A DNA stretch of 64,000 nt, taken from positions 32,001 through 96,000 of the IMG/VR virus record IMGVR_UViG_3300033141_004289; one strand, 5' to 3'. The position numbers and the translations under genes were made by a program. Source of the DNA: a virus. Under the pieces are notes generated by a model that saw only the letters and a list, made by a program, of their open reading frames with translations, was not told the DNA's origin and made no database searches. Below, piece after piece: positions 1 through 21,705 of this stretch; the stretch's first letter is position 1, and every line of letters begins with the position of its first letter.

Positions 1-387
1 TCTAATATCCCAGACGGGTTTTATGAAGTTAAGAAATTTTTTAGAGTTGGGTTCGGTGCTTGGAGCATGACTTTTAGGCCGGGACAAATACTTTCTTATA
101 AAAAAAGAAAATTAGAGCAGTGGGACGCACTCTCAAAAACATTTAAGACCAGAAAACCACCTATACAAGGTAGAGAGACATTTGATCTGACAGCTTATGA
201 CGATAATTACGAGCAGAAGATTCAAATCAAAAAATTCTTGGATAATGTTGAGTCACTAAAAGAGAAAGAATTTAATAAACGAATAATGGCGTCACTCCCT
301 GAAATTACAGGTACAGTTAAAGATGTAATGAAAAAGATGAAGGATTTACCACCTAAAACTAAAGTGAAGTTAATTGTAGAAAAGTAA
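1..387 (+). CDS. hypothetical protein, 5'-truncated by window edge
   Basis: Frame 1 is open from base 1 (SNIPDGFYEVKKFFRVGFGAWS) into the listed 67..387 ORF. Confidence 0.6.
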   Translation, partial: SNIPDGFYEVKKFFRVGFGAWSMTFRPGQILSYKKRKLEQWDALSKTFKTRKPPIQGRETFDLTAYDDNYEQKIQIKKFLDNVESLKEKEFNKRIMASLPEITGTVKDVMKKMKDLPPKTKVKLIVEK

Positions 388-6072: not shown

Positions 6073-6324
6073 ATGAAGAACAAGTTATTCATCGGTGGCT
6101 TAAATTATAAAACTAAAGAAAAGTCACTTAAAGAAGAATTATCAAAATATGGCTCAGTTCTATCACTTAGAATAGTGGTAGATGTTGAATCTGGAAAATC
6201 AAGAGGTTTTGCGTTTGCAACTCTTGATTCTGAACAAGCAGCCAAAAAGGTCATAGAAGAATTAGATAATACCATTTTTGATGACCGAAGAATTGGTGTC
6301 AAAGAATCAATAGATAGGAAGTAG
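6073..6324 (+). CDS. RRM (RNA recognition motif) RNA-binding protein
   Basis: RNP2 LFIGGL and RNP1 RGFAFATL; start ATG 6073 or TTG 6064. Confidence 0.9.
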   Translation: MKNKLFIGGLNYKTKEKSLKEELSKYGSVLSLRIVVDVESGKSRGFAFATLDSEQAAKKVIEELDNTIFDDRRIGVKESIDRK

Positions 6325-8036: not shown

Positions 8037-8546
8037 ATGAAAATTACAAATGAAATCATGGAGATGATGGGTACAAAAAAGATTATTAAATCTGTGGCTA
8101 TAAATATAAAAGATGGCGGAGATGGGTATAATAAGGCCGTTGATAAATTAGACAAGTCAGGTGGCTCGATTACAGATAAACAAGATAAAGAAGGACTAAT
8201 ATCTAATCTTATTGCTAAAAAATTAGATATCTCTAAGGATACTAATTTCTCGTTTGATTTCGCTAAATCAAAGGGGGATAAAATTGTTGTCTCAGGAGTA
8301 ATTATTGATGAGGCCCAACATTATAATACTAAAATACGCCAATTAGAAGGTGCAGGTAGTAGAAAAATAAGACTTGGTGTTAAGCAATGCGTCGAAATGT
8401 CTGAACGGATGTTGAATCCTAATAATAATTATCCAAATCCAGCAGATGAATTAGGTAGAATTGCTTTGTTAGAAGGTATTCAAATGATGAATATGACTAT
8501 GAAAAAGTTAAAATCTGTTAAAGATAAAAAGGGTAAAAAACAATGA
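8037..8546 (+). CDS. putative internal head protein (leader-tagged)
   Basis: MKITNEIME leader; lies between portal and protease. Confidence 0.45.
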   Translation: MKITNEIMEMMGTKKIIKSVAINIKDGGDGYNKAVDKLDKSGGSITDKQDKEGLISNLIAKKLDISKDTNFSFDFAKSKGDKIVVSGVIIDEAQHYNTKIRQLEGAGSRKIRLGVKQCVEMSERMLNPNNNYPNPADELGRIALLEGIQMMNMTMKKLKSVKDKKGKKQ

Positions 8547-9214
8547 AATTAATACAACAATTATTTGAAGAAATGCTTCCCCAATCATCTGATCTAATTA
8601 GATTAGCTTTAAATCAAAGAATTTTTGATTTAGGTATCGAGGGTGTTTTTGTAGAGGAAGTAGATATTGAATTTGATGGGGATGTTATAGTTGAGTTTGT
8701 GGATAATGAACAAAACGAAATGAGTGTACTATTTCAATATGACCCAGTTGATGGTGCTGAAGCAATAGTTATAGATGATGAAGGTGGGGATTTTGAGGAT
8801 GAAGAGAATGGTGAATTTGAAATTGATATGATTGATATTGACCCATTAGTTCCAACTATTATCAACTTAGGTAATGGAACTCACTCAATTGATTTAGTTA
8901 ATAATAAATGGATGAATAGATCATTTTTTGATGCTTTATTTTCATTAGCAGATCATATGGAAAGTATGCCAAGTGATATTGATGAAAGAGCTGCATTTGT
9001 TATTAAAGGTGGTAAAAAGGTAAAGGTAGCACTAGTTAGAAGAAAAAGAAAAAAGAGACTAACTTCTAAACAAAAAGCTGGTTTTAAAAAGGGTGCTAGA
9101 AAAAGGAAAGCAAAGAAGGGCCAAATAAATAGAAAAAGGGCCAAATCTTTAAAGGTTCGTAAAAGACTTAAACTAAAGAAAAATACTAATAAGAAATTAA
9201 AGGTAATGCGATAA
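8543..9214 (+). CDS. prohead core protein (gp67/gp68-like), acidic N-part and very basic C-tail
   Basis: D/E-rich body, RRKRKKR...RKRAKSLKVRKRL tail, position. Confidence 0.55.
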   Translation: MKLIQQLFEEMLPQSSDLIRLALNQRIFDLGIEGVFVEEVDIEFDGDVIVEFVDNEQNEMSVLFQYDPVDGAEAIVIDDEGGDFEDEENGEFEIDMIDIDPLVPTIINLGNGTHSIDLVNNKWMNRSFFDALFSLADHMESMPSDIDERAAFVIKGGKKVKVALVRRKRKKRLTSKQKAGFKKGARKRKAKKGQINRKRAKSLKVRKRLKLKKNTNKKLKVMR

Positions 9215-9732
9215 TGAAAGTCATCAATGAAATAAATAATTTTTTATGGGCAAGCATTTTTGAATCTATTGATCTGAATGAAAACATTAACATGCGGTTT
9301 GTTTCTGAAAAAGAATGTGACGAATATATTGAAAGAACAGAAATTTGGAGAATTGAAGGGGATGAATCTGACCCTGAGGGGACAGAGGTGCTTTCAGCTT
9401 ATTCTAAAGTTGACGGGTCATATATAGGTCAAATTAAAGAAGCTGACATAATGGTGAAAAAATGGGGATTATCCCAAATTCAAAAAGCCGAAAATGGTCA
9501 CAGCGTTGCATCAATCGGATTTAATGAAAAGAAACAAGAATGGTGTGGGTGGAGTCATAGAGCAATGTGTGGTTTTGGAATTGGTGATAAAGTATTTGAT
9601 GAAAGTTTTGGCGGCACAATGGATATAGGCCAATTGGAAAAAATGCCCTTTAGAAAAAGGGGTAGTATAGTTATCGCTAAATTAGAACAAGCAAAAAAAG
9701 CAGCAAGTAATTTTGCTAAATATGTGAGCTAA
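9214..9732 (+). CDS. putative internal head protein (leader-tagged)
   Basis: MKVINEINNFL leader; SIGFNEKKQEWCGWSHRAMCGFGIGD motif. Confidence 0.5.
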   Translation: MKVINEINNFLWASIFESIDLNENINMRFVSEKECDEYIERTEIWRIEGDESDPEGTEVLSAYSKVDGSYIGQIKEADIMVKKWGLSQIQKAENGHSVASIGFNEKKQEWCGWSHRAMCGFGIGDKVFDESFGGTMDIGQLEKMPFRKRGSIVIAKLEQAKKAASNFAKYVS

Positions 9733-9733
9733 A

Positions 9734-9949
9734 ATGGCAAAGGAAAAAGAAGAATTAGTTGGTAAGGCCTTAATGACAGAGCTTTCAAGATATGCTCTTA
9801 GAATTGGTAGAAAAGCCGAATCCAGTGCAGTTAAAGACAAAACTAATTTAATTTTGGCCATTGGTTTAATAAATCATGCCCAAGGATTAGTGGAAGTTGA
9901 TGCCACTAAAGCAAGGCGTTTAATGGGCCAAGTTAAGAAACTGATATAA
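9734..9949 (+). CDS. hypothetical protein
   Basis: Tightly packed ORF. Confidence 0.55.
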   Translation: MAKEKEELVGKALMTELSRYALRIGRKAESSAVKDKTNLILAIGLINHAQGLVEVDATKARRLMGQVKKLI

Positions 9950-9959
9950 GGGGTTTTGC

Positions 9960-10211
9960 ATGGATGCTAAAGGAATTGGTGTTGGTACTATATTAAGTGG
10001 AATAATTCTTGGCTTAATTGCTTGGTCAGGTGTTCAGATTGTTTCAAATGCAAAGGCAGTTACTAGATTGGAAGAACGAGAAATGGCCACTAGGGATATT
10101 ATCATTAGAATGAGAACTGATTTTGATAAAAGATTGGATAGTATAGATTCTAATGTAGATTGGATAAGACGAAATTTATATTATAAGGGAACCCCTATTA
10201 GGGGTAAATAG
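9960..10211 (+). CDS. single-TM membrane protein with coiled coil (possibly holin-like)
   Basis: GIGVGTILSGIILGLIAWSGV hydrophobic segment then coiled coil. Confidence 0.4.
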   Translation: MDAKGIGVGTILSGIILGLIAWSGVQIVSNAKAVTRLEEREMATRDIIIRMRTDFDKRLDSIDSNVDWIRRNLYYKGTPIRGK

Positions 10212-10223
10212 TAAGGACAAGTC

Positions 10224-10943
10224 ATGAAATTTAATACAACTTTAGATGCACAAACATTTTTAACTGAGGTTAGAGAGTTCTCTAAGATTAAAGATGCTGA
10301 TGAGAAGTATGAGCCAACTAATGAGGAAGTTCAATCATTTTTAAAGGCCCGCACACCGTTAGTTAAAAAATTAAAAAATAATAGAAAATCATCTGCTCAA
10401 AAAGCAAATTGGCGACAAAATAGATATAAGATGATGAAAGGTATTAAGGCCTTCCATAAGTCTGTTAAAGGGAAGAGATTTCATAGAAAATTAGGTACTT
10501 TTTTAGCCACTAGATTATTTCGTGCTAAAACAAGTGAAAGTGGCTTTTCAATGTTATTATCAAAGCAGGGTTATTTGAAAGGACTTAATTCAGCAAAACA
10601 GCATTTATTGGTTGAACTCGAGTATTTTCATCAATTACAAGAACAGGTAGAATTAGAAGAGTTTATTACTGATTATGCCTATCCTTATTTTAGATCGATA
10701 GAAGAAAAAGTTATAATAGACGAAGATTTGACAGATGATGAATTAGTGTTCTTGTTTGATTTAGTTGAGGCCAATGCTTTGATAACTTCATTTTCTGATA
10801 AAACAGGGTTAACATTTGCACAAATCGAGAAAATGTGGAATGCTATAAGGAATGATTTAAATAAAGAAGGGATTACAGATGATGATGAAAAATTTTATCC
10901 CTTTTTGGTTACTCGTTTAAAAAAACAGATAGGAATTAAATAG
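10224..10943 (+). CDS. prohead core/head assembly protein
   Basis: Directly upstream of protease; basic central segment KANWRQNRYKMMKGIKAFHKS. Confidence 0.45.
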   Translation: MKFNTTLDAQTFLTEVREFSKIKDADEKYEPTNEEVQSFLKARTPLVKKLKNNRKSSAQKANWRQNRYKMMKGIKAFHKSVKGKRFHRKLGTFLATRLFRAKTSESGFSMLLSKQGYLKGLNSAKQHLLVELEYFHQLQEQVELEEFITDYAYPYFRSIEEKVIIDEDLTDDELVFLFDLVEANALITSFSDKTGLTFAQIEKMWNAIRNDLNKEGITDDDEKFYPFLVTRLKKQIGIK

Positions 10944-12319
10944 TGAAACTTGAAAAAATTTCATGCGTAATTGACCCCGAAGTTAAATTTTCTCTAGTTG
11001 AGGAATCTAATGAAGTTGATGGGGAACATATTTTAGCAAAGATCAAAGGTCAGTTCTTTGTTCCTAACGGTAAATCCAGAAATGGTAGATTTTATCCTTC
11101 TGCTTTATGGGAAAGAGTAATTAATGACCCAACAGTTAAGAATAGATTAAATAAAAGAGTAATGTTTGGTACAGTGGGTCATGACGCCGAATTAAATGAT
11201 AAAGCTGTTCGAGAAGGTCTAATTTCCCATTTTATGACAAATATTGGAATTGATGATAATGGTAGAGGTATGGGTGAAGCCTTAATTTTAAATACTCCGA
11301 CTGGGCGTATTTTAAATACAGTTCTAAGAGCTGGTTCCCAATTATTTGTTTCCTCAAGGGCCAATGGCACCTTTAAAGGAAAGCATGACGGTTTGCCAGT
11401 TGTAGATGAGGACACTTATGATATTGATGGTTGGGATTTTGTAATTGACCCCGGTTTTTTAGAGGCCAACCCATCAGTTTCTGAAAGTCTAAAGAAAATA
11501 GGAGAAAAAAATATGAACATTAATAACAAGGAAGTCAGCATGAACGAAAAACTGATTGAGCACATTTCTAATGAGAACCATGAACTTAAAACTAAAGTTG
11601 GAAATCTAACTGATGAAATTAAAGCATTAGAAGAAGATACAACTACTATTAAAGAAGAGAACACACATCTTAAATCTGAAATGGATAAGTGGGAAGCTGA
11701 TAAAAAGGTTATCGAATCTTATACAAATATCGGTACAGTTGAAGAACTTACTGAAAAACTTGCTAAAGCAGATGAAGATGGAAAGGTTCTAACGGCCTAC
11801 AATGAGCTTTCTGATTCCCCAGAAATTGCTAAAGAAACTCTTGAAAGTGCTAGAGACTTTATCAAAACTGTAACAGAAGAGTTTGGAACAATTGCTCAAA
11901 TTAAAAAGGCCCTTGAATCAGCTATTTCTTTTAGAGAGTCTATTGAAGAAATGGGAACAACTGATCAAATTAAAGAAGCCCTTACTGCTTATTTAACAAT
12001 TCTTGAAGCCGAAGAAGCTAAAAAAGAAGATATTAAAGTTAAAGCTCTTGCAGAAGAACTTGGAATTGAAGAAGGAAAAATGAAAGACCTTCTACTTAAA
12101 TATTCTGAAGAAGATATTAAGGCCCTTCTTGGAAATAAGAAAGAAGAGAAGCCAGTTGAAGAAAACAAAGAAGATACTACTACTGATGAAGATGCTTATA
12201 AAAAGAAGAACTTCACAGAAGAAAAAAAGGAAGAAGATACGAATACTGACGTTTCTGAAAGTAATATTTTAGGAAAATCAAGAGCTGATCGTATCGCTGA
12301 AAGATATAACAGAGTTTAA
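10943..12319 (+). CDS. prohead protease (T4 gp21-like) fused to C-terminal scaffold
   Basis: SRNGRFYP, GTVGH, ILNTPTGRIL, VSSRANG, WDFVIDPGFLEA; acidic coiled-coil C-half. Confidence 0.9.
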   Translation: MKLEKISCVIDPEVKFSLVEESNEVDGEHILAKIKGQFFVPNGKSRNGRFYPSALWERVINDPTVKNRLNKRVMFGTVGHDAELNDKAVREGLISHFMTNIGIDDNGRGMGEALILNTPTGRILNTVLRAGSQLFVSSRANGTFKGKHDGLPVVDEDTYDIDGWDFVIDPGFLEANPSVSESLKKIGEKNMNINNKEVSMNEKLIEHISNENHELKTKVGNLTDEIKALEEDTTTIKEENTHLKSEMDKWEADKKVIESYTNIGTVEELTEKLAKADEDGKVLTAYNELSDSPEIAKETLESARDFIKTVTEEFGTIAQIKKALESAISFRESIEEMGTTDQIKEALTAYLTILEAEEAKKEDIKVKALAEELGIEEGKMKDLLLKYSEEDIKALLGNKKEEKPVEENKEDTTTDEDAYKKKNFTEEKKEEDTNTDVSESNILGKSRADRIAERYNRV

Positions 12320-12398
12320 TTTCTCTCCTATTGAACTGCACTTCAGTCGATAGAAGGATTTAAGTCAATATTATTAACTTATTTGATAGGAGAGTATC

Positions 12399-13814
12399 AT
12401 GGATACTAACAAAATCGAAGAAAAGGCCGTTGAAAGAATGGCTGAGGGATACTTCGCTAAATACAAATCCCAAATGCAAACACTCGAAAAATCTCTAGTT
12501 TCTAAAGCTATGGATTTGACTGAGCATCACCTAGTTCAACTTGGAAAGCAACTTGACCAATGGGAAGTTTATCGTTCCATGTGTGAAGCTAATGGTTCTT
12601 TGAACACTCTTGGTGAGCTACCTAAAGTTGCTCTTGATGTTATTACAGCTACTATGAGTAATAGTATTCTTCCTGTAATTGCTTCTACGCAAACTATTGA
12701 GTCTCAAAAATCAATTATCTGGTTCAAGAATGTAAAAGCTCTTGATTCTAAAGGTAATATTACTGCTGGTGATAAATTGATTGACCCACGAGTTGGAAGT
12801 AAGACACCTTCTGGATATGCTTCTTCTGAAGTTATCGGTGAAGAAGCTGTTAACCCAACTATTGCAACTCAGGTTGCTTACGCTTTTAGTGTAAATGGTA
12901 GTGAGTCAATTCGCAGTCAATTTATTAAAGTTTATCTAGAGTCTGATCCTTCCATCTATGCGAAAGATTTTGAAGGAAAAGGTATTCTTCTTGGTAACGG
13001 AATGAGTGGTACAGTTAATTATACAACTGGTGCTATCACTATTGATCTTGCAGCTGATCCAGGAGGAGCTGATAAGATTCTTGTTGATTATCAACAAAAC
13101 CTTGAAGAGATGAGCGATGTTCGAAGAATTAGCTCTGAACTTGAATCAACTGACATCGAAGCAAAACCATATGCACTTAAAGGTGTTATGGGAATGTTCC
13201 AGATGTTCGCTCTTAAAAAAGCATTTGGTGATTCTGCTCTTGATGACCTAACTATGGACCTTACTCGTGAAATCAATGCTGAAATCGGTGGCGATTTTAT
13301 TCGTAAGTATTCTAGTGAAGCCGTTGGTACAACTAGTTTTACTGATTATAACCCTCTTGTTCAAACTGGTTATTCTGAGAAGCAATACAGAGAGTCTTAT
13401 GCTTTCCGTATGGCAGATGCAGAAACAGTTATGATGGGTAATGTTGGTCGTGGTGCTATTAAAGTTATGATCGTTGGTCGTGAGCATGCTGCCCTCGTAA
13501 GAGGACTTGATGGATTCAACCTTCTTTCTGATGGTGGAAGTCTTGGTGCACACGTTTTTGGAACTTATAAGGGTATTACTTATATTCGTGTTCCAGAAGA
13601 AGCACTTCTTAGTGCTAAATTAGGTATTGGACTTTACACTGGTGCTTCTCCACTTGAGAGTGCTGGGGTTTATGCTCCTTTTATGCCTCTAACTGTTCAA
13701 GCTGCACCTTTAGGGCCTAACCCACTAACTGACCAAAAAGTTGCTGCCACTATGGCTGGAACTAAGGTTGTTGTTCCCGGTTATGCTACTAAATTTAATG
13801 TAGTTGCTCCTTAA
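12399..13814 (+). CDS. major capsid protein (T4 gp23-like)
   Basis: 471 aa after protease; strong AGGAGAG RBS; high-expression codon bias; EINAEI, GVYAPFMPL. Confidence 0.9.
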   Translation: MDTNKIEEKAVERMAEGYFAKYKSQMQTLEKSLVSKAMDLTEHHLVQLGKQLDQWEVYRSMCEANGSLNTLGELPKVALDVITATMSNSILPVIASTQTIESQKSIIWFKNVKALDSKGNITAGDKLIDPRVGSKTPSGYASSEVIGEEAVNPTIATQVAYAFSVNGSESIRSQFIKVYLESDPSIYAKDFEGKGILLGNGMSGTVNYTTGAITIDLAADPGGADKILVDYQQNLEEMSDVRRISSELESTDIEAKPYALKGVMGMFQMFALKKAFGDSALDDLTMDLTREINAEIGGDFIRKYSSEAVGTTSFTDYNPLVQTGYSEKQYRESYAFRMADAETVMMGNVGRGAIKVMIVGREHAALVRGLDGFNLLSDGGSLGAHVFGTYKGITYIRVPEEALLSAKLGIGLYTGASPLESAGVYAPFMPLTVQAAPLGPNPLTDQKVAATMAGTKVVVPGYATKFNVVAP

Positions 13815-13826
13815 TCTTCGGATTAA
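13811..13826 (+). other. C(UUCG)G tetraloop hairpin over the capsid stop codon
   Basis: TTAATC-TTCG-GATTAA. Confidence 0.6.
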
Positions 13827-13845
13827 AGAACTAAAAGAAAATTTA

Positions 13846-13882
13846 GGGGAGGGGATGAGAAATCACTCCCTCCCTTTTTTTT
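13846..13882 (+). terminator. intrinsic terminator after major capsid gene
   Basis: GGGAGGGG.TGA-GAAA-TCA.CTCCCTCCC then T-run. Confidence 0.85.
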
Positions 13883-13900
13883 AAATAAGGAAAGAAAAAA

Positions 13901-14203
13901 ATGAAAGTCAAAGTAACAAATTTACTAAAGAGCGTTCTGGTTATTGCATCAACTCAAGGAAAGCAATTAGCACTTGGAAGTGAAAGAGGCCATATTTTTG
14001 AGAAACACGAGTATGCTTTTTTCAGTAAGTCCTGTGAAAATTTTAAAAAGACAGGTTGGTTAAAAATTGAACAGGTTAGTGAAGAAGCTGTTGTAGGAAA
14101 AGCAAATGCAGAGCCAGTTGATAAAGCAATTGAAATTGCAGGCAAAGAAAAGCCAGTTGTGAAAAAGAAAAGAGGCAGAAAACCTAAAAAGAAGACTGCT
14201 TAG
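13901..14203 (+). CDS. hypothetical virion-associated protein with basic C-tail
   Basis: After capsid gene; KKKRGRKPKKK tail. Confidence 0.55.
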   Translation: MKVKVTNLLKSVLVIASTQGKQLALGSERGHIFEKHEYAFFSKSCENFKKTGWLKIEQVSEEAVVGKANAEPVDKAIEIAGKEKPVVKKKRGRKPKKKTA

Positions 14204-14232
14204 TAAATTAATTTATAAACTAGGGGATTGTT

Positions 14233-14904
14233 TTGAGAATCGAGGACATTTTTGATCGTATCCTCTTACGGTCCGGTCAATTTATTTTAAGAAAAAGCCG
14301 TATCGATATAGATATTGATAGTTTCAGAATATTAGTAGAGGATGCTCTATCTGAATATTCTGGTTTTGTTCCATATGAAAAACCATATACAATGGATTTT
14401 AATAGTCAGAGAAATTTTACATTTCCTGATGGTTGGGATACTGATTTAAATAGATCACCTGATTGGATTGCAGAGGCCACTCCTATTAATTCCTTTGGTT
14501 CAATAAATACTATTTTAAATTATTCTGGTAGCCCACAAAATGCTTTGATTGACCCTATTCAAGCACCTTGGGATTACAATAAAGTTAATAAAACATTAAC
14601 TGTTCCATATAGTGCTTTTTATAAAGTAGTTGCTTGTTATGAGCATGAAATAGTTAGTGAAGTAATTGATGGTGTAACAGTTTATTCTGTTCCAACAATA
14701 GATAGAAAAGACCAACCATTCTTCGACTTATTGAAAGGAATGTTTTTACAGGGTATTGGTAGAAGCCGTAGGGCCTTTACATTAAATGATTTACCTATAT
14801 TAATGGATGCAGAAACACTAGCATCTGAGGGTGATGAGATAATGGAAAGAGCTCTTGAAGGACTACAAGCAGATCAAAAATTTTACTTAGCATTTGGGGG
14901 ATAA
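14233..14904 (+). CDS. neck/head-tail adaptor (gp13-like)
   Basis: Position; IGRSRRAF...DAETLASEG C-terminal pattern. Confidence 0.55.
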   Translation: MRIEDIFDRILLRSGQFILRKSRIDIDIDSFRILVEDALSEYSGFVPYEKPYTMDFNSQRNFTFPDGWDTDLNRSPDWIAEATPINSFGSINTILNYSGSPQNALIDPIQAPWDYNKVNKTLTVPYSAFYKVVACYEHEIVSEVIDGVTVYSVPTIDRKDQPFFDLLKGMFLQGIGRSRRAFTLNDLPILMDAETLASEGDEIMERALEGLQADQKFYLAFGG

Positions 14905-14905
14905 T

Positions 14906-15172
14906 ATGAGTATAGCAAAAAAGATTTTAGATAAGTTACCTAAGAAAGAAGAGACGAAAGTGGATGAAAAAGTTGCTCCTTCTTTTTTTGATGCCGCAAA
15001 TGCTTTGGCTTCTTTAATTAAAAGATGGAAAAGCGGTGATAAGAATTTCGCTGGTGTTCAAAAACTATTTGTAGAAATTCTTGATAGTTTAGACGAAGTT
15101 GATGAACAACAAGCATTAGCTAAAATGGATGCATTAGCTAAATTTATTAGAAGCAAGGATATTGAAGGATAA
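14906..15172 (+). CDS. small putative internal protein (leader-tagged)
   Basis: ATG 14906 after GGGGGA; MSIAKKILDKL...VDE. Confidence 0.4.
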   Translation: MSIAKKILDKLPKKEETKVDEKVAPSFFDAANALASLIKRWKSGDKNFAGVQKLFVEILDSLDEVDEQQALAKMDALAKFIRSKDIEG

Positions 15173-15175
15173 ATA

Positions 15176-15751
15176 ATGCCTGTCTTTTTAAAAGATATTA
15201 AAAGGGAATTAGAATCCGATATTGGAAAGGTAGGACAAGCTGCTGATGGTAGCTATAAGTTTGAACCACCCAATATTGTAGGTAGGAAAATATCAAAATA
15301 TACTAAATTAAAAGTTACTAAGGTATCTTCTACACCAACTTTCGGTACAAATTCTATATCATATAATGGATTAGCTGCTTCTGAATCAGATAAGGGTATT
15401 AAATATAAAGTAACTATTAGATTTCACGATATGCAGTTTAAGGATATTGCTTCTAAACAATTCTCTACAGAAGCAAAAATGGGTAAAGTTACTAAGTATC
15501 ACAGGATACCTACAGTTCAAAGAAATCCAGTAATGCTAAAATGTAGCTGTCAGGATTTTAGGCATAGATTTGAAACTCAATTATCAAATGCTAGTGGATT
15601 AGTTGGTGGTCCTAGAAAATATACTAGAAAAACCCCCCCATGGCCTATTGGTTATCCATTTGCCAACTCAACAAATAAGTTAGGTATTTGTAAGCATGTA
15701 AACTCTCTATTATTTATTTTAAAAGATAAGGGTTTAATTAAGGAGCGATAA
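15176..15751 (+). CDS. SWIM-type Zn-finger protein
   Basis: CSCQDF...ICKH (CxC...CxH). Confidence 0.65.
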   Translation: MPVFLKDIKRELESDIGKVGQAADGSYKFEPPNIVGRKISKYTKLKVTKVSSTPTFGTNSISYNGLAASESDKGIKYKVTIRFHDMQFKDIASKQFSTEAKMGKVTKYHRIPTVQRNPVMLKCSCQDFRHRFETQLSNASGLVGGPRKYTRKTPPWPIGYPFANSTNKLGICKHVNSLLFILKDKGLIKER

Positions 15752-16035
15752 TGAAATTAGCAGAAAAGGTATTACTATTTAGTGAGGCTTTCGATACTGA
15801 GCAAGCAATGAAGAACGTACCGATTCAGACAGGCAAGGTTAGATTCTTTAATGCCAGTGATTTAAAAGGTTCGATAACAGGTGATGATGGCGGTTCTTAT
15901 GACATCTTCCTTAATCAACATAATAAAAAAGACGTTAAAACGGCCAAGAAAATAAAAGATGGTATGAAAATTAAGTTTAAAGACCTCGATGTAGAACCAC
16001 CAATGGCCTATATTGGTGATTTTAGTTTTAAGTAA
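15751..16035 (+). CDS. leader-tagged protein with degenerate cold-shock (OB) domain
   Basis: MKLAEKVLLFSE leader; TGKVRFFNASDLKGSITGDDGGSYDIF resembles CspA TGxVKWFN...GFITPDDGSKDVF. Confidence 0.55.
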   Translation: MKLAEKVLLFSEAFDTEQAMKNVPIQTGKVRFFNASDLKGSITGDDGGSYDIFLNQHNKKDVKTAKKIKDGMKIKFKDLDVEPPMAYIGDFSFK

Positions 16036-16046
16036 TAGGAGACTAA

Positions 16047-16451
16047 ATGTCATTTTATAGTGAAATGGAAAAAATCATTGATAAGCATGGAGAGGATGGT
16101 TTAATTCATTTAGAGCATTATTATGGCATTGATTTAGAACTTTACAGACAGGTTAAAAACAGTGCCTATAGTACGGTTCATGGTAGAGATGCAGGACAAC
16201 CAGCAAGTCATTTAAAAAACTTTATTGGTATATTACAGAGTGACGATTTCTTCCCAGCAAATAGTACCCAAGCACCGGCCTTTGAAGCTGGTTTTTTACA
16301 TACTAGAGAACTAGAAATACTAGTTGGTGATGTAATTAAGATAGTTTCAAACGATGATAGAAATAGAAGATATAGAATAATTGAGATTGATTCAATTGGT
16401 TTAACTCAACAAGTTTATAAACGATATAAATTAAGTGCATTAGGTGATTAA
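16047..16451 (+). CDS. head closure/neck protein (gp14-like)
   Basis: AGGAG RBS; YGIDLELY, VGDVIKI...YRI. Confidence 0.45.
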   Translation: MSFYSEMEKIIDKHGEDGLIHLEHYYGIDLELYRQVKNSAYSTVHGRDAGQPASHLKNFIGILQSDDFFPANSTQAPAFEAGFLHTRELEILVGDVIKIVSNDDRNRRYRIIEIDSIGLTQQVYKRYKLSALGD

Positions 16452-16452
16452 G

Positions 16453-16722
16453 ATGAATATTATTATAGAAATAAAAAAATTATTAGAAGATGCCCAAGAA
16501 GATTTTTTAAGTAAGCATAGTAAGACATATGATCTTGATAAATATGCTGAGTATATGGATACTAATTTTCTAAGCGGTAGGGACAATTCAAGAAGGCGAT
16601 ATGATAAGGCAATTGATTCATATATAAATGCTAATTTTGGAAATATAAAAGATAAGAAGGTATTAAAGGAAATCAAAGATAAGTTAGTTAATCAATATGA
16701 ATATGAAGATGGGGTTAATTAG
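16453..16722 (+). CDS. small putative internal protein (leader-tagged)
   Basis: MNIIIEIKKLLE from ATG 16453. Confidence 0.45.
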   Translation: MNIIIEIKKLLEDAQEDFLSKHSKTYDLDKYAEYMDTNFLSGRDNSRRRYDKAIDSYINANFGNIKDKKVLKEIKDKLVNQYEYEDGVN

Positions 16723-16728
16723 TAAAAT

Positions 16729-16902
16729 ATGAAACTACTTTACTTCATTCACGCTATTTTTTGGAGTATTTTTACAGGCATTTTTGCTATCTGTGAAACC
16801 ATTTATTATCATGCTGAGATAGCATCAGAGCAAAATTGCTTTATAGACGAAATTGAACCACTATATTTAGAGAAACTAATAAATGAAAAATTTGGAGAAT
16901 AA
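16729..16902 (+). CDS. small membrane protein (57 aa, not in ORF track)
   Basis: MKLLYFIHAIFWSIFTGIFAICE...KFGE* fills the gap exactly. Confidence 0.45.
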   Translation: MKLLYFIHAIFWSIFTGIFAICETIYYHAEIASEQNCFIDEIEPLYLEKLINEKFGE

Positions 16903-16903
16903 T

Positions 16904-17173
16904 ATGAAATTAGCTGAAAAATGTTTAGAACTAGGTAAAGAAGAAATCGTTGTAGAGGCCAAAAAAGTTAATGGAGAGAAGATGATTGCTGATATGGAAA
17001 AAGCAATTGAATCAAATGATGAGAAAAGTCTTTTAAAATTTATGGCAATGGATAAAAAGAACTTCTTTAGTAAGAATAATTTAGACATGCTTGCCGATGA
17101 AGGACAAATTACAAAGGAACAAGCAAGTCAGTTAGGTAAATTATCAATTCAAGTTGCTCAAGCATTGAGATAG
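16904..17173 (+). CDS. small putative internal protein (leader-tagged)
   Basis: GGAG RBS then ATG 16904; MKLAEKCLE...IVVEA. Confidence 0.5.
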   Translation: MKLAEKCLELGKEEIVVEAKKVNGEKMIADMEKAIESNDEKSLLKFMAMDKKNFFSKNNLDMLADEGQITKEQASQLGKLSIQVAQALR

Positions 17174-17180
17174 GTTAATA

Positions 17181-17867
17181 ATGGCAAGTAAATCTGAAAA
17201 TTTAGATAATAGTCAAAATGATGTTATTACAACAATGACGCATGTGCTTTATCGTTTTCAGGAAATGGTATCTAAAGAAATGCCATCTATTCCTGTTGTT
17301 TATACAGAAGATTTATCTTATGAAAGTGCTTTAAAACAGATAATTGCTAATGCTAGTTATGGCGGCCATGCTCAAGATAGTATTCCCTTTTTTGCTTATA
17401 ATAGAACAGTATTAAATGAGATTGAAGATAGGGCATTAAGTAGAAGGGCAAAAAACTGTATTGGTTGTCAAAAAGTAGGTGACCAACAAATTACTTATGG
17501 CTGTGCATATGGAGAGTTTGATATCCAATTTCTCTATGTATCTAATAATATTGAATTAACAGAAAAATTCGAAGTAGTTTATAACTCAGATGAAGGCATT
17601 AGTGGAACTAAAGAATTAATCGTTGATATGGAAGAATTAGGACAATTTAAATACTTCCTAGATTATCAGGATTTAGTAGAACAACAAATTAGTCATGAGG
17701 ATGTTTACTATAAGGGAATAATTGGTAGTATTAAAGTAAGAGGATTTTATTTTACCTTTAGAGGTGCTAGTGGATTAATTGAAGAAATTAATCAGCGCAT
17801 TATCACTTCAAGGGATATCCCAAATAGGGAAGAGAACGAAATTCTTAGTGATATACAAATCGTCTAA
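17181..17867 (+). CDS. tail terminator/sheath stabiliser (gp15/gp3-like)
   Basis: Position before sheath; size; IPFFAYNR. Confidence 0.45.
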   Translation: MASKSENLDNSQNDVITTMTHVLYRFQEMVSKEMPSIPVVYTEDLSYESALKQIIANASYGGHAQDSIPFFAYNRTVLNEIEDRALSRRAKNCIGCQKVGDQQITYGCAYGEFDIQFLYVSNNIELTEKFEVVYNSDEGISGTKELIVDMEELGQFKYFLDYQDLVEQQISHEDVYYKGIIGSIKVRGFYFTFRGASGLIEEINQRIITSRDIPNREENEILSDIQIV

Positions 17868-17878
17868 GGAGTTAAAGG

Positions 17879-18178
17879 ATGGTCAAGCAAAAAAATGACA
17901 TTGATGTTAAGCTAATTCAGGGTAACTTAATTAGCAATCCTACCAAACCTGATGTAGAATTATATAAAGAATTGGTAGAGAAGGGTAAAATAGTTGAAGA
18001 AGTTGTTCACCCCGCTTTAGTAATTTCTAGATTAGATTACCCAGTTGTTTTGAATTATGGGGAATCTAAGATAAGATTGTCACCAAGAAGTATTTTAAAA
18101 GTTGGTGATGTTGATAAACTTGGTGAGCTTGAAAAGGGTGTGTTCCTAAAGAAGATTACCTCCGTTAAAGTAAAGTAA
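17879..18178 (+). CDS. hypothetical protein
   Basis: AAGGA RBS; precedes sheath. Confidence 0.55.
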   Translation: MVKQKNDIDVKLIQGNLISNPTKPDVELYKELVEKGKIVEEVVHPALVISRLDYPVVLNYGESKIRLSPRSILKVGDVDKLGELEKGVFLKKITSVKVK

Positions 18179-18227
18179 AGTCATTATAAAATTAATTATG
18201 TAATAAACTTAGATATGGAGGTTTAAA

Positions 18228-19817
18228 ATGGGTGGAGCTGCTTCTGTAAGAATTAAGGAAGTTGACCTATCGACAAGAGTTGCCTCGTTTGAGGGTGTTT
18301 ACGGTGCAATCGTAATTCCCGCAACCAAAGGACAATCCGATAGGCCCTTTTTTGTTTCAAGCGATACACAGTTATTGAATACTGCAACCCCAGATGGAAC
18401 AGTGGCCGTTGGTTATGATCTATCTTATTTTTCTGCTCTGGCATACTTAGAGCGAGCTAATAAATTGTGGGTTCAGAGAGTTATTAACGGGGCATTTTAT
18501 GCCGGTCTACTGGTTAAGGAAACTGCTAGTCTTGATCCAAATATTGGAATCACTGCTGGTTCTGATGTTTCTGACCCTACCGCATTTGTACTTGGTGCAG
18601 AAGATGCGCTTTTCATTTATTCTGCAAATGAAGGGACATGGGGAAATGATATTGGAATTAAGATTACAACAATTGATGATGATGAGGACTTAATTGAGCC
18701 AAATTCATTTTTAATTGAAGTTTTTAAATTTGCTAATCAAGTAACTCCTGTTGAATCCTTTTTAGTTTCACGAGTTCTTGGTCAAAAAGATGGCCGTGGT
18801 CTTAACATGTATGTCGAAGATGTTTTAGAAGGTTCTGAATATATCAGAGCTATTTCTAATCCAACTATTGCTGAAACTGTTTTACCAAAAACTCAAGCTG
18901 CTTATTTAGCAATGACAGATGGTGATGATGGTCTAGCAATAACTGATACAAACATGATTGCAGCTGCAAATAATTTTGCTAATAAAGCAGAAGTTTCAGT
19001 TACTATCTTAATGGACGGTGGTTATGCTGTTCCAGCATATCAGATTGCACTTGATACAATTGCTCAGAGTCGTCAAGATTGTGTTGCCATTCTTTCAGTT
19101 CCTTATGCTGATGAAGCTGGCTCAACATACATGGTCGACATTGTAGATTATAGAAAAACAGATTTGAATTTAAATAGTTCATACTCTGCTCTTTATACTC
19201 CTCACCTTCAAATCCAAGATCGTTTTAATGATAGATCAATTTGGATTGCACCAGATGGCCATGTAGCTGGAAGTATTTCATTTGCTTCTAATACATTTGA
19301 AATTTGGTTTCCAGCTGCTGGATTTAAGCGTGGTGTGTTAAATGTTCTTGATACAAAAAGAAGATTCTCAGATGGTGAGTTGGATGAACTTTATAATAAA
19401 GGGATAAACCCAATTCGATTCATTCCCGGAAAAGGGATTGTAGTTTGGGGCCAAAAAACATTATTGGCCAGAGCATCTGCTCTTGACCGATTAAATGTTA
19501 GACTTCTTCTAATTGTTATTGAACCAGCAATTAAAGAGCTTCTTGAAAACTTCTTGTTTGACCTTAATGATGCAAGTGTTAGATCAATTATTGAAACAAA
19601 GATTGAATCTTACCTTCAAACCATTCAGGCCAGAAAAGGTATTCAAGATTTTGATGTAGTCGCTGATGATACCAATAACTCGGATGCAGATATTGATGCC
19701 AATCGACTAAACGTAGATATTTTTATTAAGCCAACCAGATCAATTGAAGAAATACCAGTTAGAGTTGTAATAACTCCTTCAAATATTTCTTTTAGTGATG
19801 CTGCAGGCGCTATTTAA
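18228..19817 (+). CDS. contractile tail sheath protein (gp18-like)
   Basis: VRIKEVDLS, WFPAAGFKRG, LYNKGINPI, WGQKTL, LNVRLLL, IKPTRSIEEI. Confidence 0.95.
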   Translation: MGGAASVRIKEVDLSTRVASFEGVYGAIVIPATKGQSDRPFFVSSDTQLLNTATPDGTVAVGYDLSYFSALAYLERANKLWVQRVINGAFYAGLLVKETASLDPNIGITAGSDVSDPTAFVLGAEDALFIYSANEGTWGNDIGIKITTIDDDEDLIEPNSFLIEVFKFANQVTPVESFLVSRVLGQKDGRGLNMYVEDVLEGSEYIRAISNPTIAETVLPKTQAAYLAMTDGDDGLAITDTNMIAAANNFANKAEVSVTILMDGGYAVPAYQIALDTIAQSRQDCVAILSVPYADEAGSTYMVDIVDYRKTDLNLNSSYSALYTPHLQIQDRFNDRSIWIAPDGHVAGSISFASNTFEIWFPAAGFKRGVLNVLDTKRRFSDGELDELYNKGINPIRFIPGKGIVVWGQKTLLARASALDRLNVRLLLIVIEPAIKELLENFLFDLNDASVRSIIETKIESYLQTIQARKGIQDFDVVADDTNNSDADIDANRLNVDIFIKPTRSIEEIPVRVVITPSNISFSDAAGAI

Positions 19818-19831
19818 GGAGGGAGTGAGTC

Positions 19832-20365
19832 ATGGCAAATTTCTCGATTGACCAATTAAGAGCTTTACCCGACTACGCACAGGTTACAAAATGGGATGTC
19901 ACCTTTGTAACTCTCCCTGCTGTCGGTGCATTGGGTTTTCCAGTAGCAGAAGATATTAATCTTCGTTGTGAATCCGTTGAACTTCCTAAAGGTGCAAACC
20001 AGAAATATGAAGTAATGACTAGAGGTCATAAAACACTTCATAGTGGAATCATGGATTATGGAAACACTATTACATTAACTTTTACAGAAACAGTTGATAA
20101 TTTCTTGTTTAATTTTGTAAAAGCATGGAGAGAACTGGTTTGGAGTAGCCGTCAAGGACAGGCTTTTTCTAAAGCAGATATTGAGGCAACTCTATTGATT
20201 ACCTTGCTTGATAACCAAGATAATCCAAGGGCCAAATATACTGTTTATGGTTGTTTTTATGAAAGTGATGATTTTGGAACATTAGATGGTTCAACCTCTG
20301 ATGCTATGAAACCATCATTGACATTAAGTTTTGACCATTTTGTAGATGCACCTCTAAGCGTTTAA
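19832..20365 (+). CDS. tail tube protein (gp19-like)
   Basis: After sheath; CESVELP, ITLTFTET, LTLSFDHF. Confidence 0.85.
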   Translation: MANFSIDQLRALPDYAQVTKWDVTFVTLPAVGALGFPVAEDINLRCESVELPKGANQKYEVMTRGHKTLHSGIMDYGNTITLTFTETVDNFLFNFVKAWRELVWSSRQGQAFSKADIEATLLITLLDNQDNPRAKYTVYGCFYESDDFGTLDGSTSDAMKPSLTLSFDHFVDAPLSV

Positions 20366-20375
20366 TTTGATTTAT

Positions 20376-20408
20376 AGGGGGTAATAACTATATGTTACTA
20401 CCCCTTTT
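20376..20408 (+). terminator. intrinsic terminator after tube gene
   Basis: GGGGTAATAAC-loop-GTTACTACCCC-TTTT. Confidence 0.75.
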
Positions 20409-20452
20409 CATCTTCCAAATCAGTTCATATAATATTCCAGAGAGGTTTAACT

Positions 20453-21136
20453 ATGGCACTTGTTCCTAGTTTTATTCCGGGTGGCGATAAAATCAATAAT
20501 GCTGTAAATAGTTTTCTTGATGGTGGAGCTGTAGGAATAGAAACAATTCGTTCTATTAATTATGGAACAACTTATTTATGGACTGTCGATTTTATTGATA
20601 CTAATGGAATTAAACCACCAGCTCCATTTGATGCATTTTTTCCAGCATCCGAAGTTACCTTTAATTTGGGTATCATTAATTCACATACTGTAGAGATGGG
20701 GCAATCAAGCATTACATTTCCAAGAAATACTACTTTTAAGACAGTAGATGTAACCTTTTTTGATGACGAAAATAGAAGTTTACAAAGATGGATGAGTGAT
20801 TGGATGAATGTGGATTTACTAAATTATGGCGAATTTATGTCTGGGATAAATGATAGTCATCAAGTAGTTGCAGCCGATTCATTTGGAAATAGTAGTAGAA
20901 GTGTTCAACCAATGAGACATATTAGAATTGCACTATTAGATAAATATAAATCAGAAACTGTAGTATATAATTATAATGTTGTACCTGATGGTAATATTGA
21001 TTTTGGTGGGACTCAAGCAAGTGAAGCATCTCAGTTTAGTATGAAGTTTAATATCGTAGAGGAATTAGGAAGACCGAAAGCCGGTGATAGTAGTTCCTTT
21101 AATTTTGTAAGAAATATATTAGGTAGGTTTATATGA
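20453..21136 (+). CDS. tube-fold baseplate/tube initiator (gp54-like)
   Basis: VDVTFFDDENRSLQRWMSDW tube-like pattern; position. Confidence 0.55.
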   Translation: MALVPSFIPGGDKINNAVNSFLDGGAVGIETIRSINYGTTYLWTVDFIDTNGIKPPAPFDAFFPASEVTFNLGIINSHTVEMGQSSITFPRNTTFKTVDVTFFDDENRSLQRWMSDWMNVDLLNYGEFMSGINDSHQVVAADSFGNSSRSVQPMRHIRIALLDKYKSETVVYNYNVVPDGNIDFGGTQASEASQFSMKFNIVEELGRPKAGDSSSFNFVRNILGRFI

Positions 21137-21479
21137 AATTAGTAAATGAAATTAATTCAATGTTGGAAGAGGTTGATGCTAAAACAGATATGAAAGTTGA
21201 TGATTTTGTTAGTAAATTTTTAATGAAAACCTATAAATTAGATTCCTATCCAGATGGTAGTGGAGTTGAAGGTAAATCAATTAGAAAGACTTTCCCTGTT
21301 AGGGATATAAAAGATGTTGATGCTAAAAAAATAGAAGATGCTATAAATGGTAAATTTAAAGATATTTTAAAATCTGTGTCTGTTAAAAAGAAAAGTCCTA
21401 GGAATCAAGTCGCCCAGTATTGGGTGGATATAAAATTTAAATAAAGGTAAGTTTATATGAAATTAGTAAATGAAATTAA
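21121..21479 (+). repeat. 35-bp direct repeat (21121-21155 and 21445-21479) over RBS and leader codons
   Basis: AGGTA(G/A)GTTTATATGAAATTAGTAAATGAAATTAA, 34/35 identical. Confidence 0.9.
21133..21444 (+). CDS. small putative internal protein (leader-tagged)
   Basis: MKLVNEINSMLEE. Confidence 0.55.
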   Translation: MKLVNEINSMLEEVDAKTDMKVDDFVSKFLMKTYKLDSYPDGSGVEGKSIRKTFPVRDIKDVDAKKIEDAINGKFKDILKSVSVKKKSPRNQVAQYWVDIKFK

Positions 21480-21705
21480 AAATTTAATTGAAGCAGTAGA
21501 TGGAAAAGAACTAAAAGCAGAATTATTAAAGAATAAAAACATTCAAGCAGTAGATACAGAAAAAGGAAAACTTATTGCTATTGTTTCACCAGAAATGAAG
21601 CATAAATTTTTGGCAGATATAAAGAAGAGTAAACTAATGAATCAATCTGCAAATTGGGTAGATTCAGCAGGTAAAACAATAAAGTTTTACTTCGATGTAA
21701 AGTAA
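21457..21705 (+). CDS. small putative internal protein (leader-tagged)
   Basis: MKLVNEIKNLIEA. Confidence 0.55.
   Translation: MKLVNEIKNLIEAVDGKELKAELLKNKNIQAVDTEKGKLIAIVSPEMKHKFLADIKKSKLMNQSANWVDSAGKTIKFYFDVK

Follow-up and report, generated by a model that had tools for sequence, protein, structure and literature searches.

Why do small genes with mostly unrelated bodies, slotted among the head and tail genes of a phage, begin with the same short peptide? The question was raised by the window, a 64,000-nucleotide stretch that corresponds to positions 32001-96000 of a 104,850-bp phage genome. Genes were called on the whole genome, and all ten ORFs listed by the first-pass annotation were present where it had placed them, with the N-termini it had given. 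Of the ~167 genes of the phage, 15-16 start with an amphipathic leader of 12 residues. The leader occurs in two flavours, MKLAEK[IVC]L and MK[ILV]xNEI[NK]xxL, and terminates in hydrophobic-x-Glu at residues 9-18; the residue after the Glu (P1') is Ala, Gly or Ser in most members. The features of the window are as follows, with a slash after the leader Glu or, in the capsid protein, after the Glu of the candidate cleavage site.

1..387, + strand: 3' part of a leader gene (genome 31959-32387, 142 aa), MKLAEKILNIGE/A
8037..8546, + strand: leader gene, 169 aa, MKITNEIME/M, directly 3' of the portal gene
8543..9214, + strand: conserved core gene, 223 aa, weak leader MKLIQQLFEE
9214..9732, + strand: gene for a leader (residues 1-17, ...IFE/S) and a predicted Tad6-type domain
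10943..12319, + strand: predicted prohead protease, S77/T4 gp21 family, with His80 and Ser137 and a fused C-terminal coiled-coil, scaffold-like region
12399..13814, + strand: major capsid protein, [IM]-x-E/[AS]NGSLNTLGELP at residues 61-64
14906..15172, + strand: marginal leader gene, 88 aa, MSIAKKILDKL, variable slot
15751..16035, + strand: leader gene, 94 aa, MKLAEKVLLFSE/A
16453..16722, + strand: leader gene, 89 aa, MNIIIEIKKLLE/D, variable slot
16904..17173, + strand: leader gene, 89 aa, MKLAEKCLELG...IVVE/A, variable slot
21133..21444, + strand: leader gene, 103 aa, MKLVNEINSMLEE/V, inserted in the tail module
21457..21705, + strand: leader gene, 82 aa, MKLVNEIKNLIE/A

A PSSM of the first 12 residues was scanned against all N-termini and internal positions of the genome. 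Members scored 14.6-28 bits, and the other 152 N-termini scored 6.1 bits or less. Only one of 30,989 internal positions exceeded 16 bits. The hit starts at an in-frame Met, residue 69 of gene 30321 (genome coordinate), which has an AAGGT ribosome-binding site upstream and is probably the start of a 16th member. When residues 2-11 were compared pairwise without bias, 33 similar N-terminal pairs were obtained against 2 among internal control segments, and the pairs fell into two clusters of 8 and 5 genes. The motif [LIVFM]-x-E, with its Glu at residues 9-18, was found in all but one of the 16 members, whereas 31 of the 152 non-members had it (Fisher p = 7e-9). The hydrophobic moment was 0.58 in members compared with 0.30 in the rest (p = 4e-8). 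The motif comes early in 8037 (IME-9), and member 24224 (genome) lacks it in residues 9-18 and has ALE-18. The PSSM, pairwise test, motif count and hydrophobic moment thus confirmed the shared amphipathic leader ending in hydrophobic-x-E that the first-pass annotation had described. Its claim that the bodies show no similarity stands for most of them by BLASTP, but a few are distant paralogues (31067/53133/53457 and 48453/53133, genome coordinates). At the level of sequence, the tag is modular.

For some genes, membership was less clear. The leader proposed for 8543 is present, but it is weak (-2 bits in a leave-one-out PSSM) and heads a conserved core gene, and its membership is marginal. In the 8543 protein, the N-terminal half is acidic and the C-terminal tail very basic; the orthologue in relative L077 has the N-terminus MKLAEELLEDLDE. 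Two further genes had been offered as weaker candidates. The first, 14906, is likewise marginal (0.9 and 4.4 bits); its leader is similar to variant leaders of relatives, whose genes in this slot carry MSKSKKFLES, MKLSEKFKNILE and MNLAKSLMDTLNE. The second, 10224, was rejected as a member: its first residues belong to the fold of a widely conserved all-alpha protein that is modelled with confidence. The family of this head gene comprises ~300 clusters at 50% identity. Within the body of 8037, only the middle (~residues 78-136) is kept in relatives, and the N-termini of the relatives there are other leader-like ones. For 15751, weak cold-shock-domain-like matches fell below threshold, and L004, L072 and L073 have no gene in its slot. 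The ATG of 16904 has a GGAGA ribosome-binding site. The leader gene cut by the left edge of the window starts 41 nt before it, directly after FolE.

The existence of a gp21-like protease, another element of the first-pass annotation, was borne out. The protein matched Pfam S77 (31.1 bits; cut-off, 27) and phrog_207, and a profile of its protease domain matched the T4 gp21 structure 5JBL (E = 1.8e-7). Its invariant His80 and Ser137 aligned with gp21 residues 85 and 140, and the protein can be assigned to the T4 gp21 (S77) family with the predicted catalytic His and Ser in place. The C-terminal half is coiled-coil and scaffold-like. The T4 scaffolding core consists of gp22, gp67 and gp68, and no sequence homology to any of these three was found in this phage. 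The gene order here (portal, small genes, protease/scaffold, capsid protein) parallels T4 genes 20-67-68-21-22-23. In the capsid protein, [IM]-x-E/[AS] near residue 63 is kept in five relatives, with strong conservation starting right after it, as at Glu65 of T4 gp23. Residues 61-64 are likely the maturation cleavage site. In T4, N-terminal propeptides of 10-20 residues direct proteins into the core, and gp21-type proteases all cleave after Glu (PMC5694885, PMC9026906).

All 16 members are located in two plus-strand blocks, where 8 of 33 and 8 of 28 genes are tagged; the tag is found on none of the 106 other genes. Eight members lie at genome 12994-32387, among preQ0 (7-deazaguanine) genes between terL and the portal gene, beyond the span 8037-21705 to which the family had been assigned. 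In the head/tail region, the leader genes are found at variable slots flanked by conserved head and tail genes, and the genes of relatives in the equivalent slots are unrelated and mostly carry leader-like N-termini too. Hence, the placement between head and tail genes holds for one half of the family, and the proposed spread over the late operon is right in that the genes are dispersed rather than at one locus, but the other half lies outside the head-tail operon. Together, this supports a reading of the leader genes as hypervariable accessory genes. The first-pass annotation had held that the motif on non-structural ORFs would speak against its reading. Taken to the letter, this is what was found, because half of the members are outside the head-tail operon, among preQ0 genes; it is a poor yardstick, however, because in T4, too, the ip genes are encoded away from the head cluster.

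The nearest cultured relatives are Rhizobium Kleczkowskaviridae (~37% capsid-protein identity). When the PSSM trained on this genome was applied to relative G001, hits were found at 6 of 148 N-termini and 19 of 23,309 internal positions; the six leader genes are all between Que genes and the portal gene, and all have the cut motif. In reverse, with a PSSM built from the leaders of relatives only, the top 13 N-termini of this genome were 13 members. The scans in the two directions amount to an independent replication. In an 86-kb relative, the tag recurs in the corresponding regions on different bodies, among them a 2H phosphoesterase, possibly Acb1-like to judge from its fold family.

The most informative body is that of ORF 9214. 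Residues 38-172 matched Tad6 (PF25188) with an E value of 2.7e-31 (109 bits) over profile positions 9-145 of 145, and an invariant GWSHR...FGIGD core is common to ORF 9214 and 12 homologues. ORF 9214 is thus predicted to be a Tad6-type inhibitor of Thoeris. Tad6 has been described as an inhibitor of type I Thoeris (Yirmiya et al. 2025, as cited in PMC13728456), and other members of the family are reported in the literature to bind ThsB and block its active site. Unlike most homologues, ORF 9214 carries an extra detached N-terminal leader (residues 1-17) and a disordered linker before the domain; among the 12 database homologues of the domain, the leader is absent in 9 and present in 3, one of them with a truncated body. 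In AlphaFold2, the leader models as a detached helix (residues 2-18, with moderate confidence only, pLDDT 52-63), after which residues 18-22 are disordered and the domain is well folded from residue 25 on. No ORF 9214 orthologue was found in L072, L073, L077 or L078.

We consider it somewhat probable (about 0.55) that the leader is a T4-CTS-like load-and-clip tag on a fast-changing set of injected accessory and anti-defence proteins. Because the leader ends at a T4-type head-protease cut motif, the small proteins are probably taken up into the capsid and, as in T4, injected together with the DNA. New accessory proteins would dock through the amphipathic helix of 12-17 residues on the core or scaffold of the prohead during its assembly, with the protease-fused coiled-coil region as the scaffold. 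This serine protease of the gp21 family would next cleave behind the Glu in the hydrophobic-x-Glu that closes the leader; the mature protein would remain in the head until it passes, along with the DNA, into a new host cell. The proposed cargo changes quickly and includes counter-defence proteins, here the predicted Tad6-type ThsB inhibitor and in a relative the 2H phosphoesterase.

This arrangement resembles the CTS of T4 (IPI, IPII, IPIII, and Alt; removed by gp21) in that a short N-terminal leader is the sole common element of unrelated, fast-evolving accessory proteins, ends in hydrophobic-x-Glu in a phage encoding a gp21-family protease, and is carried by genes scattered over two or more loci away from the core head genes. 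The T4 proteins Ip1-3 have only the N-terminal leader in common, are encoded at two loci outside the head cluster and serve in anti-defence (PMC12373910). In contrast, the leader here is 2-7 residues longer and comes in two flavours, carriers number ~16 rather than 3-4, and the scaffold is fused to the protease instead of being a separate gp22. Moreover, the phage, known from sequence alone, is not of the T4 type (Straboviridae), and the cargo is a predicted Thoeris inhibitor instead of the GmrSD inhibitors of T4. The leader PSSM scored the N-termini of T4 IPI, IPII, and IPIII (NC_000866) at -11 to -15 bits, without sequence relation to MKTYQEFIAE, and the leader is best regarded as an analogue of the T4 CTS, not a homologue. 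The address-label reading of the first-pass annotation is supported in part, by the modular tag, the S77 protease, the cut motif and its match in the capsid protein, and the predicted Tad6-type cargo; the leader is not like the T4 CTS in sequence.

Some observations weigh against packaging or cleavage. Because Tad6 homologues elsewhere lack such a leader, Tad6 can do its work without packaging, and a ThsB inhibitor that is expressed late and encoded beside the capsid genes could make sense unpackaged. Half of the members are among DNA-modification genes, and 16 cargo species are many for a phage of ~105-120 kb. In addition, hydrophobic-x-Glu tends to arise in amphipathic helices anyway when the proteome is rich in Glu.

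An unlikely explanation is that the leader is a common docking or oligomerisation helix for a non-capsid hub, such as a chaperone, degradation adaptor or replication factory, with the Glu merely part of the amphipathic pattern. An amphipathic leader that models as a detached helix would suit this role, as would the location of half of the members among non-structural preQ0 genes and the action of Tad6 on ThsB in the cytoplasm. However, such a helix does not account for the set position of hydrophobic-x-Glu with a small residue after it, for the match of this motif to the conserved capsid-protein site, or for the enrichment in slots of the head, neck and tail-tube operon, and no candidate hub was found.

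The common start could also be mainly a DNA-level handle for cassette exchange, or a duplication relic, by which recombining repeats swap accessory genes while the peptide has little function. The leader genes do lie in hyperplastic slots, and the neighbours 21133 and 21457 share a near-identical ribosome-binding site and first 8 codons. Yet the DNA upstream of leader genes is unrelated apart from this pair, and the DNA of leaders in the same slot differs between relatives. At leader codons for identical residues, 18 of 63 and 44 of 138 differ synonymously, with 31.8 and 57.4 expected at saturation; synonymous sites have therefore gone 57-77% of the distance to saturation with the residues unchanged, and the peptide pattern is kept between genomes at ~60% capsid-protein identity. 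These data show selection on the leader peptide rather than on the DNA and make an exchange handle improbable as the main explanation. Such a role could coexist with a function of the peptide.

Still less probable is an expression cassette, in which an A-rich, unstructured 5' coding region (ATG AAA ...) is selected for translation initiation of inserted genes. In its favour, translational coupling to the preceding gene is common among members, and genes in general often have Lys (AAA) as codon 2 and early codons rich in AT. But the conserved positions are hydrophobic residues 3, 4, 7, 10 and 11 and Glu 12/13, despite synonymous variation, and the pattern is absent from the other 23 proteins that start with MK. 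Finally, it is hard to credit that the leader serves for recognition by a modifying enzyme, in the style of RiPP precursors: a radical-SAM gene does lie amid the upstream leader cluster, but instead of a dedicated radical-SAM/SPASM maturase beside the tagged genes it is the only one per genome, is grouped with FolE, QueD and QueC among the preQ0 genes, encodes a 242-aa protein that matches QueE models best (all below curated cut-offs) with no SPASM-family model above cut-off, and has no radical-SAM counterpart near head-module leader genes here or in the head-module contigs of relatives.

The load-and-clip reading also has partial parallels outside T4. Giant phages (SPN3US gp245 and the phiKZ and 201phi2-1 proteases) likewise have gp21-like proteases that cleave after Glu; some of their propeptides are short (20-24 residues) and found on head proteins of unknown function, and the paralogues gp53 and gp54 have an identical 15-residue N-terminus that was read by the authors as CTS-like. 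However, their cut motif is A-x-E or S-x-E and most propeptides have 100-250 residues, whereas here one short leader is found on many unrelated small proteins of a ~105-kb phage. In phage P1, incorporation of the Dar proteins is ordered and depends on Hdf and DarA. The anti-restriction proteins of this system (DarA, DarB, Hdf, and others) enter the head during morphogenesis and are delivered with the DNA, according to the abstract of PMC12810830, which describes no common short cleavable leader. The likeness thus lies in head-incorporated anti-defence proteins delivered with the DNA, which for the phage here is only proposed.

More tentatively, an uncultured myophage clade with the 10224-family gene may use the tag (M)K-L-A/V-E/N-E/K-hydrophobic...hydrophobic-x-E for preloading the capsid with a changing arsenal. 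This arsenal possibly includes inhibitors of signalling immunity, with Tad6 directed against Thoeris and the 2H phosphoesterase against cyclic-nucleotide systems. If so, the inhibitors would reach the host with the DNA, ahead of any phage gene expression, and metagenomes could be mined for injected anti-defence proteins by means of the tag sequence.

The phage record is a single sequence of 104,850 bp (~32% GC; estimated completeness, 88%), on which our own gene call placed 167 genes; the window covers positions 32001-96000 of it. All ten ORFs listed in the first-pass annotation start with the N-termini written there, and 15 or 16 genes carry the leader, an amphipathic helix of about 12 residues ending in hydrophobic-x-Glu. 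A position-specific score matrix (PSSM) of the first 12 residues, scanned over this genome, set the family cleanly apart: members scored 14.6 to 28 bits (mostly >10 bits in leave-one-out scoring) and every other N-terminus scored ≤6.1 bits. A regular expression for residues 1 to 7 found 14 genes in the whole genome, all on the + strand. When all protein pairs were compared by BLOSUM score over residues 2 to 11, without any motif and with internal segments as the control, 33 similar N-terminal pairs were found versus 2 in the control. These pairs formed two clusters, MK[ILV]xNEI... (8 genes) and MKLAEK... (5 genes). The leaders were amphipathic (hydrophobic moment, 0.58 versus 0.30 for other N-termini; p = 4e-8). 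The ending [LIVFM]-x-E, with Glu at residues 9 to 18, was present in 15/16 members versus 31/152 nonmembers (p = 7e-9); in 75% of members this Glu is residue 12 or 13, and it is mostly followed by Ala, Gly or Ser.

The limits of the family differed somewhat from those first drawn. ORF 8543 is a weak member (leave-one-out score, -2 bits), and 14906, already listed as a weaker candidate, is marginal. ORF 10224, listed likewise, was rejected as a leader carrier. It belongs to a family of 301 representative clusters (50% identity) with a conserved N-terminus, MKFxxxxDxxxFLxE, and AlphaFold2 predicted an all-alpha fold (pLDDT 88.5) that encloses residues 1 to 40 (pLDDT 96 to 98); it is a conserved head-module protein, and a Foldseek search of its model against the PDB gave no fold match. 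The bodies behind the leaders were mostly unrelated by BLASTP, as had been claimed, except that a few are distant paralogues. For most of them, Pfam, PHROGs and NCBIfam gave no explaining match, and the ESM Atlas gave no usable match for two leader proteins.

Only 1 of 30,989 internal positions exceeded 16 bits, namely the in-frame Met69 of gene 30321 (genome coordinate), which opens MKLVNEINDLLS behind an AAGGT ribosome-binding site and is probably the internal start of a 16th member. This gene (genome 30321-31070, L002:10321-11070) lies outside the window and joins an N-terminal stretch of 68 residues in frame to the leader gene; either it yields two products or a stop codon between the two parts was lost.

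The stretch over which the family was first described is the head, neck and tail-tube operon.

Genes of the head module and its surroundings (window coordinates)
5269-5997, +, Peptidase_C92 (YaeF/YiiX permuted papain-like amidase, E = 5e-24)
6073-6324, +, 83-aa RNA-recognition-motif protein (Pfam RRM_1, E = 8e-19), immediately 5' of the portal gene
6327-8033, portal
8543-9214, +, conserved core protein
10224-10943, +, conserved head-module protein
10943-12319, protease-scaffold fusion
12399-13814, major capsid protein
18228-19817, sheath
19832-20365, tube

Relatives were recovered by capsid-protein-guided searches. Scans of metagenome and genome collections with one or two capsid-protein sequences gave no matches; a four-sequence alignment retrieved L077 and L078. 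Among cultured phages, the closest capsid proteins (≤37% identity) were those of Rhizobium Kleczkowskaviridae, followed by Maribacter, Vibrio, E. coli and Acinetobacter phages.

Relatives' loci, with capsid-protein identity and leader-like starts
L004, 70%; MKLSEKFKNILE
L072, 64%; MSKAKKVLES, MSKSKKFLES and MSKASMLLEQ (within-genome cluster, 0 control matches)
L073, 60%
L077, 60%, 66-kb contig; MKLAEELLEDLDE, on the 8543 orthologue
L078 (whole record G001, 86.5 kb), 59%; MNLAKSLMDTLNE, MTKKLAEALIE and MKNLSQEVIEVLNE
L079, 43%; MSLARELIDLIE
L074, 33%

The syntenic backbone comprises 5269, 6073, portal, 8543, 9734, 10224, protease and capsid protein, followed by 14233, 15176, 16047, 17181, 17879, sheath, tube, 20453 and 21716. 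The strong leader genes 9214, 15751, 16453, 16904, 21133 and 21457 have no orthologues among the relatives; they occupy variable slots, which in the relatives are empty or hold unrelated genes. Most of these replacement genes also start with a leader-like helix. In G001, a PSSM trained only on the present genome scored at least 5 bits at 6/148 N-termini versus 19/23,309 internal positions. The six G001 leader genes all lie within 6 kb between the Que genes and the portal gene, with none among ~90 small early genes (p = 0.003). All six carry the cut motif, and none of their bodies is homologous to those of leader genes in the present genome. At the sequence level, G001 is an independent replicate of the leader family. 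Conversely, when the PSSM was built from the relatives' leaders only, the top 13 N-termini of the present genome were 13 members. The leader family is confirmed to span the genome and the clade. In two cultured relatives at greater distance, E. coli phage IME392 and Rhizobium phage TM30, the head module is compact and no leader recurs. When MKxxNEI[NK] was searched as a DNA pattern in IMG/VR, the 66 single matches lay mostly off ORF starts and no genome had multiple copies, so they look like chance.

Several other features of the head module were observed. The RRM gene, which is atypical for a phage head module, keeps its position in L072, L073, L077 and L078. The Peptidase_C92 gene is kept 5' of the RRM and portal genes in relatives, and its product may serve as a second processing enzyme or act as an amidase on the cell wall. 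The 8543 protein is strongly acidic in its N-terminal half and ends in a tail of ~60 residues that are nearly all Lys and Arg, a composition that would suit a DNA-associated internal head protein. In L077 (5598-7816), the portal and protease regions are separated by an insertion of three tandem paralogues of ~240 to 250 aa, each starting MINLLHGDCLELMK and lacking the leader.

The presence of a gp21-like protease was borne out. ORF 10943 matches Peptidase_S77 (31.1 bits; cut-off, 27) and phrog_207, head maturation protease, and a seven-sequence profile of its protease domain matches the T4 gp21 structure 5JBL (E = 1.8e-7). The residues of the 5JBL chain aligned with the invariant His80 and Ser137 are 104 and 159, which, minus the 19-residue tag offset, are gp21 residues 85 and 140. 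We take these to be the catalytic residues; the crystallised chain has Ala at both positions, consistent with a catalytic-mutant construct. The gp21-type proteases of T4, phiKZ, 201phi2-1 and SPN3US all cleave after Glu (PMC5694885). In the capsid proteins of the clade, [IM]-x-E/[AS]NGSLNTLGELP (slash, predicted cut) occurs at residues 61 to 64, with more variable sequence before it and highly conserved sequence after it; this is where maturation cleavage is expected, and the motif is of the same form as the leader end. The N-terminal 10 residues of T4 IPIII are enough for targeting, in which positions 4 and 7 are important; positions 8 and 10 are important in processing (PMC9026906). As read from NC_000866, IPII and IPIII start MKTYQEFIAE/A and IPI starts MKTFKEF...ITE/A. 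Like the present leader, these have Met-Lys, hydrophobic residues at 4 and 7, and hydrophobic-x-Glu followed by a small residue, but they score -11 to -15 bits with the PSSM of this phage. Judged from sequence, the leader is an analogue, not a homologue, of the T4 capsid-targeting sequence.

The best-supported mechanism, from sequence logic and by analogy with T4 and the giant phages, is that the leader would direct its protein to the prohead, where the protease would cut after Glu and leave the cargo to be injected. We put the probability of this reading slightly above even, at about 55%. Possibly, the leader is instead a docking helix with a target other than the capsid, but that leaves its protease-type ending and its match to the capsid-protein site unexplained.

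Two further explanations are a DNA-level recombination handle and a translation cassette. A handle could coexist with a peptide function and may apply to the adjacent genes 21133 and 21457, whose bodies differ but which are headed by a near-identical ~35 bp (window 21121-21155 and 21445-21479) comprising the ribosome-binding site and codons 1 to 8. This near-repeat, the sole DNA-level leader conservation, points to recent duplication or gene conversion. Across the family, however, same-residue leader codons have diverged extensively: synonymous differences were found in 18/63 pairs in the MKLAEK group versus 31.8 expected at saturation, and in 44/138 pairs in the NEI group versus 57.4, the expectation being based on the codon usage of this genome. 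Leaders occupying the same slot also differ from relative to relative, and both findings speak against a handle. Since the DNA 5' of the ATG is unconserved and same-residue codons differ synonymously, selection acts on the leader peptide. A translation cassette would likewise leave the conserved hydrophobic and Glu positions, with their synonymous variation, unexplained. Sigma-70 promoter scans gave a signal at or below chance.

All 16 members lie within two + strand blocks, and the tag occurs on none of the other 106 genes.

Blocks containing tagged genes (genome coordinates)
13-33 kb, +, upstream block, 8/33 genes tagged
37.2-54.5 kb, +, head, neck and tail-tube block, 8/28 genes tagged

The proposed spread over the late operon (8037-21705) therefore holds for half of the family; the family is wider, and its other half is interleaved with preQ0 (7-deazaguanine) genes. 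By Pfam, the upstream block encodes QueD (PTPS), QueC, a QueE-like radical-SAM protein and FolE, and it includes terL. A recognition leader for a radical-SAM enzyme was rejected, as the only radical-SAM gene of each genome best matches QueE models and lies beside FolE, QueD and QueC, and no such enzyme is encoded near the leader genes of the head module. Two tandem paralogues at genome 22509-24157 (L002:2509-4157) had no Pfam matches, and the first (L002:2509-3324) had none in NCBIfam. In T4, ipI and ipII/ipIII occupy two loci, both away from the head genes (PMC12373910), so tagged genes outside the head block are no evidence against a capsid tag.

One candidate cargo is ORF 9214, of which residues 38 to 172 match Pfam Tad6, a type I Thoeris inhibitor (E = 2.7e-31). 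Tad6 is reported to co-purify with ThsB, whose active site it is predicted to block (PMC13728456). AlphaFold2, run on the Tad6 homologue alignment (mean pLDDT, 87.8), gave a helix at residues 2 to 18 (pLDDT 52 to 63), disorder at 18 to 22 and a confident domain from residue 25; in this model, the predicted cut, IFE17/S18, falls at the helix/linker junction. Of 12 database homologues, two (P0002 and P0003, on 116-kb and 43-kb contigs) are orthologues of 54 to 59% identity that carry leaders, MKLVEQLNNLLWE before Ser and MKLFEALDNAFW...YYE before Asp. One of 113 aa has MKVVNEIFKIINE before Ser and only the C-terminal half of the domain, and nine have different N-termini or none. Domain and leader are thus separable. 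The C-terminal 53 residues of 10224 resemble the N-terminal extension of homologue P0008, on another contig (E = 5e-12), which hints that Tad6 domains have been joined to parts of the head module on more than one occasion; when the N-terminal domain of P0008 was used for a region search, only P0008 itself matched. A 119,305-bp contig on record carries an identical Tad6-like protein; given the 88% completeness, ~14 kb of the phage may be absent from the present record.

In G001, the leader protein at 59424 (L083:19424-19873; MKLAQELKKLVNE before Asp) matches LigT_PEase (24.1 bits; cut-off, 23.3) and has two H-x-T motifs, as a 2H phosphoesterase. It is a candidate degrader of cyclic-nucleotide signals. 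T4 Acb1 belongs to the same fold family, and its gene, 57B, adjoins ipI.

The interleaving of half of the tagged genes with preQ0 genes suggests that some cargo may shield modified DNA on entry, in parallel with T4 Ip1-3, which shield glucosyl-hmC DNA. If the tag works as proposed, the load-and-clip cargo system of T4 reaches an unrelated, environmentally widespread phage clade, and cargo loading would be linked, beyond restriction inhibitors, to inhibitors of signalling immunity (Thoeris and possibly CBASS-like). The tag could serve as a portable label for bringing foreign proteins into non-T4 capsids and, if this reading is true, would offer a simple route to the injected counter-defence proteins of uncultured phages.
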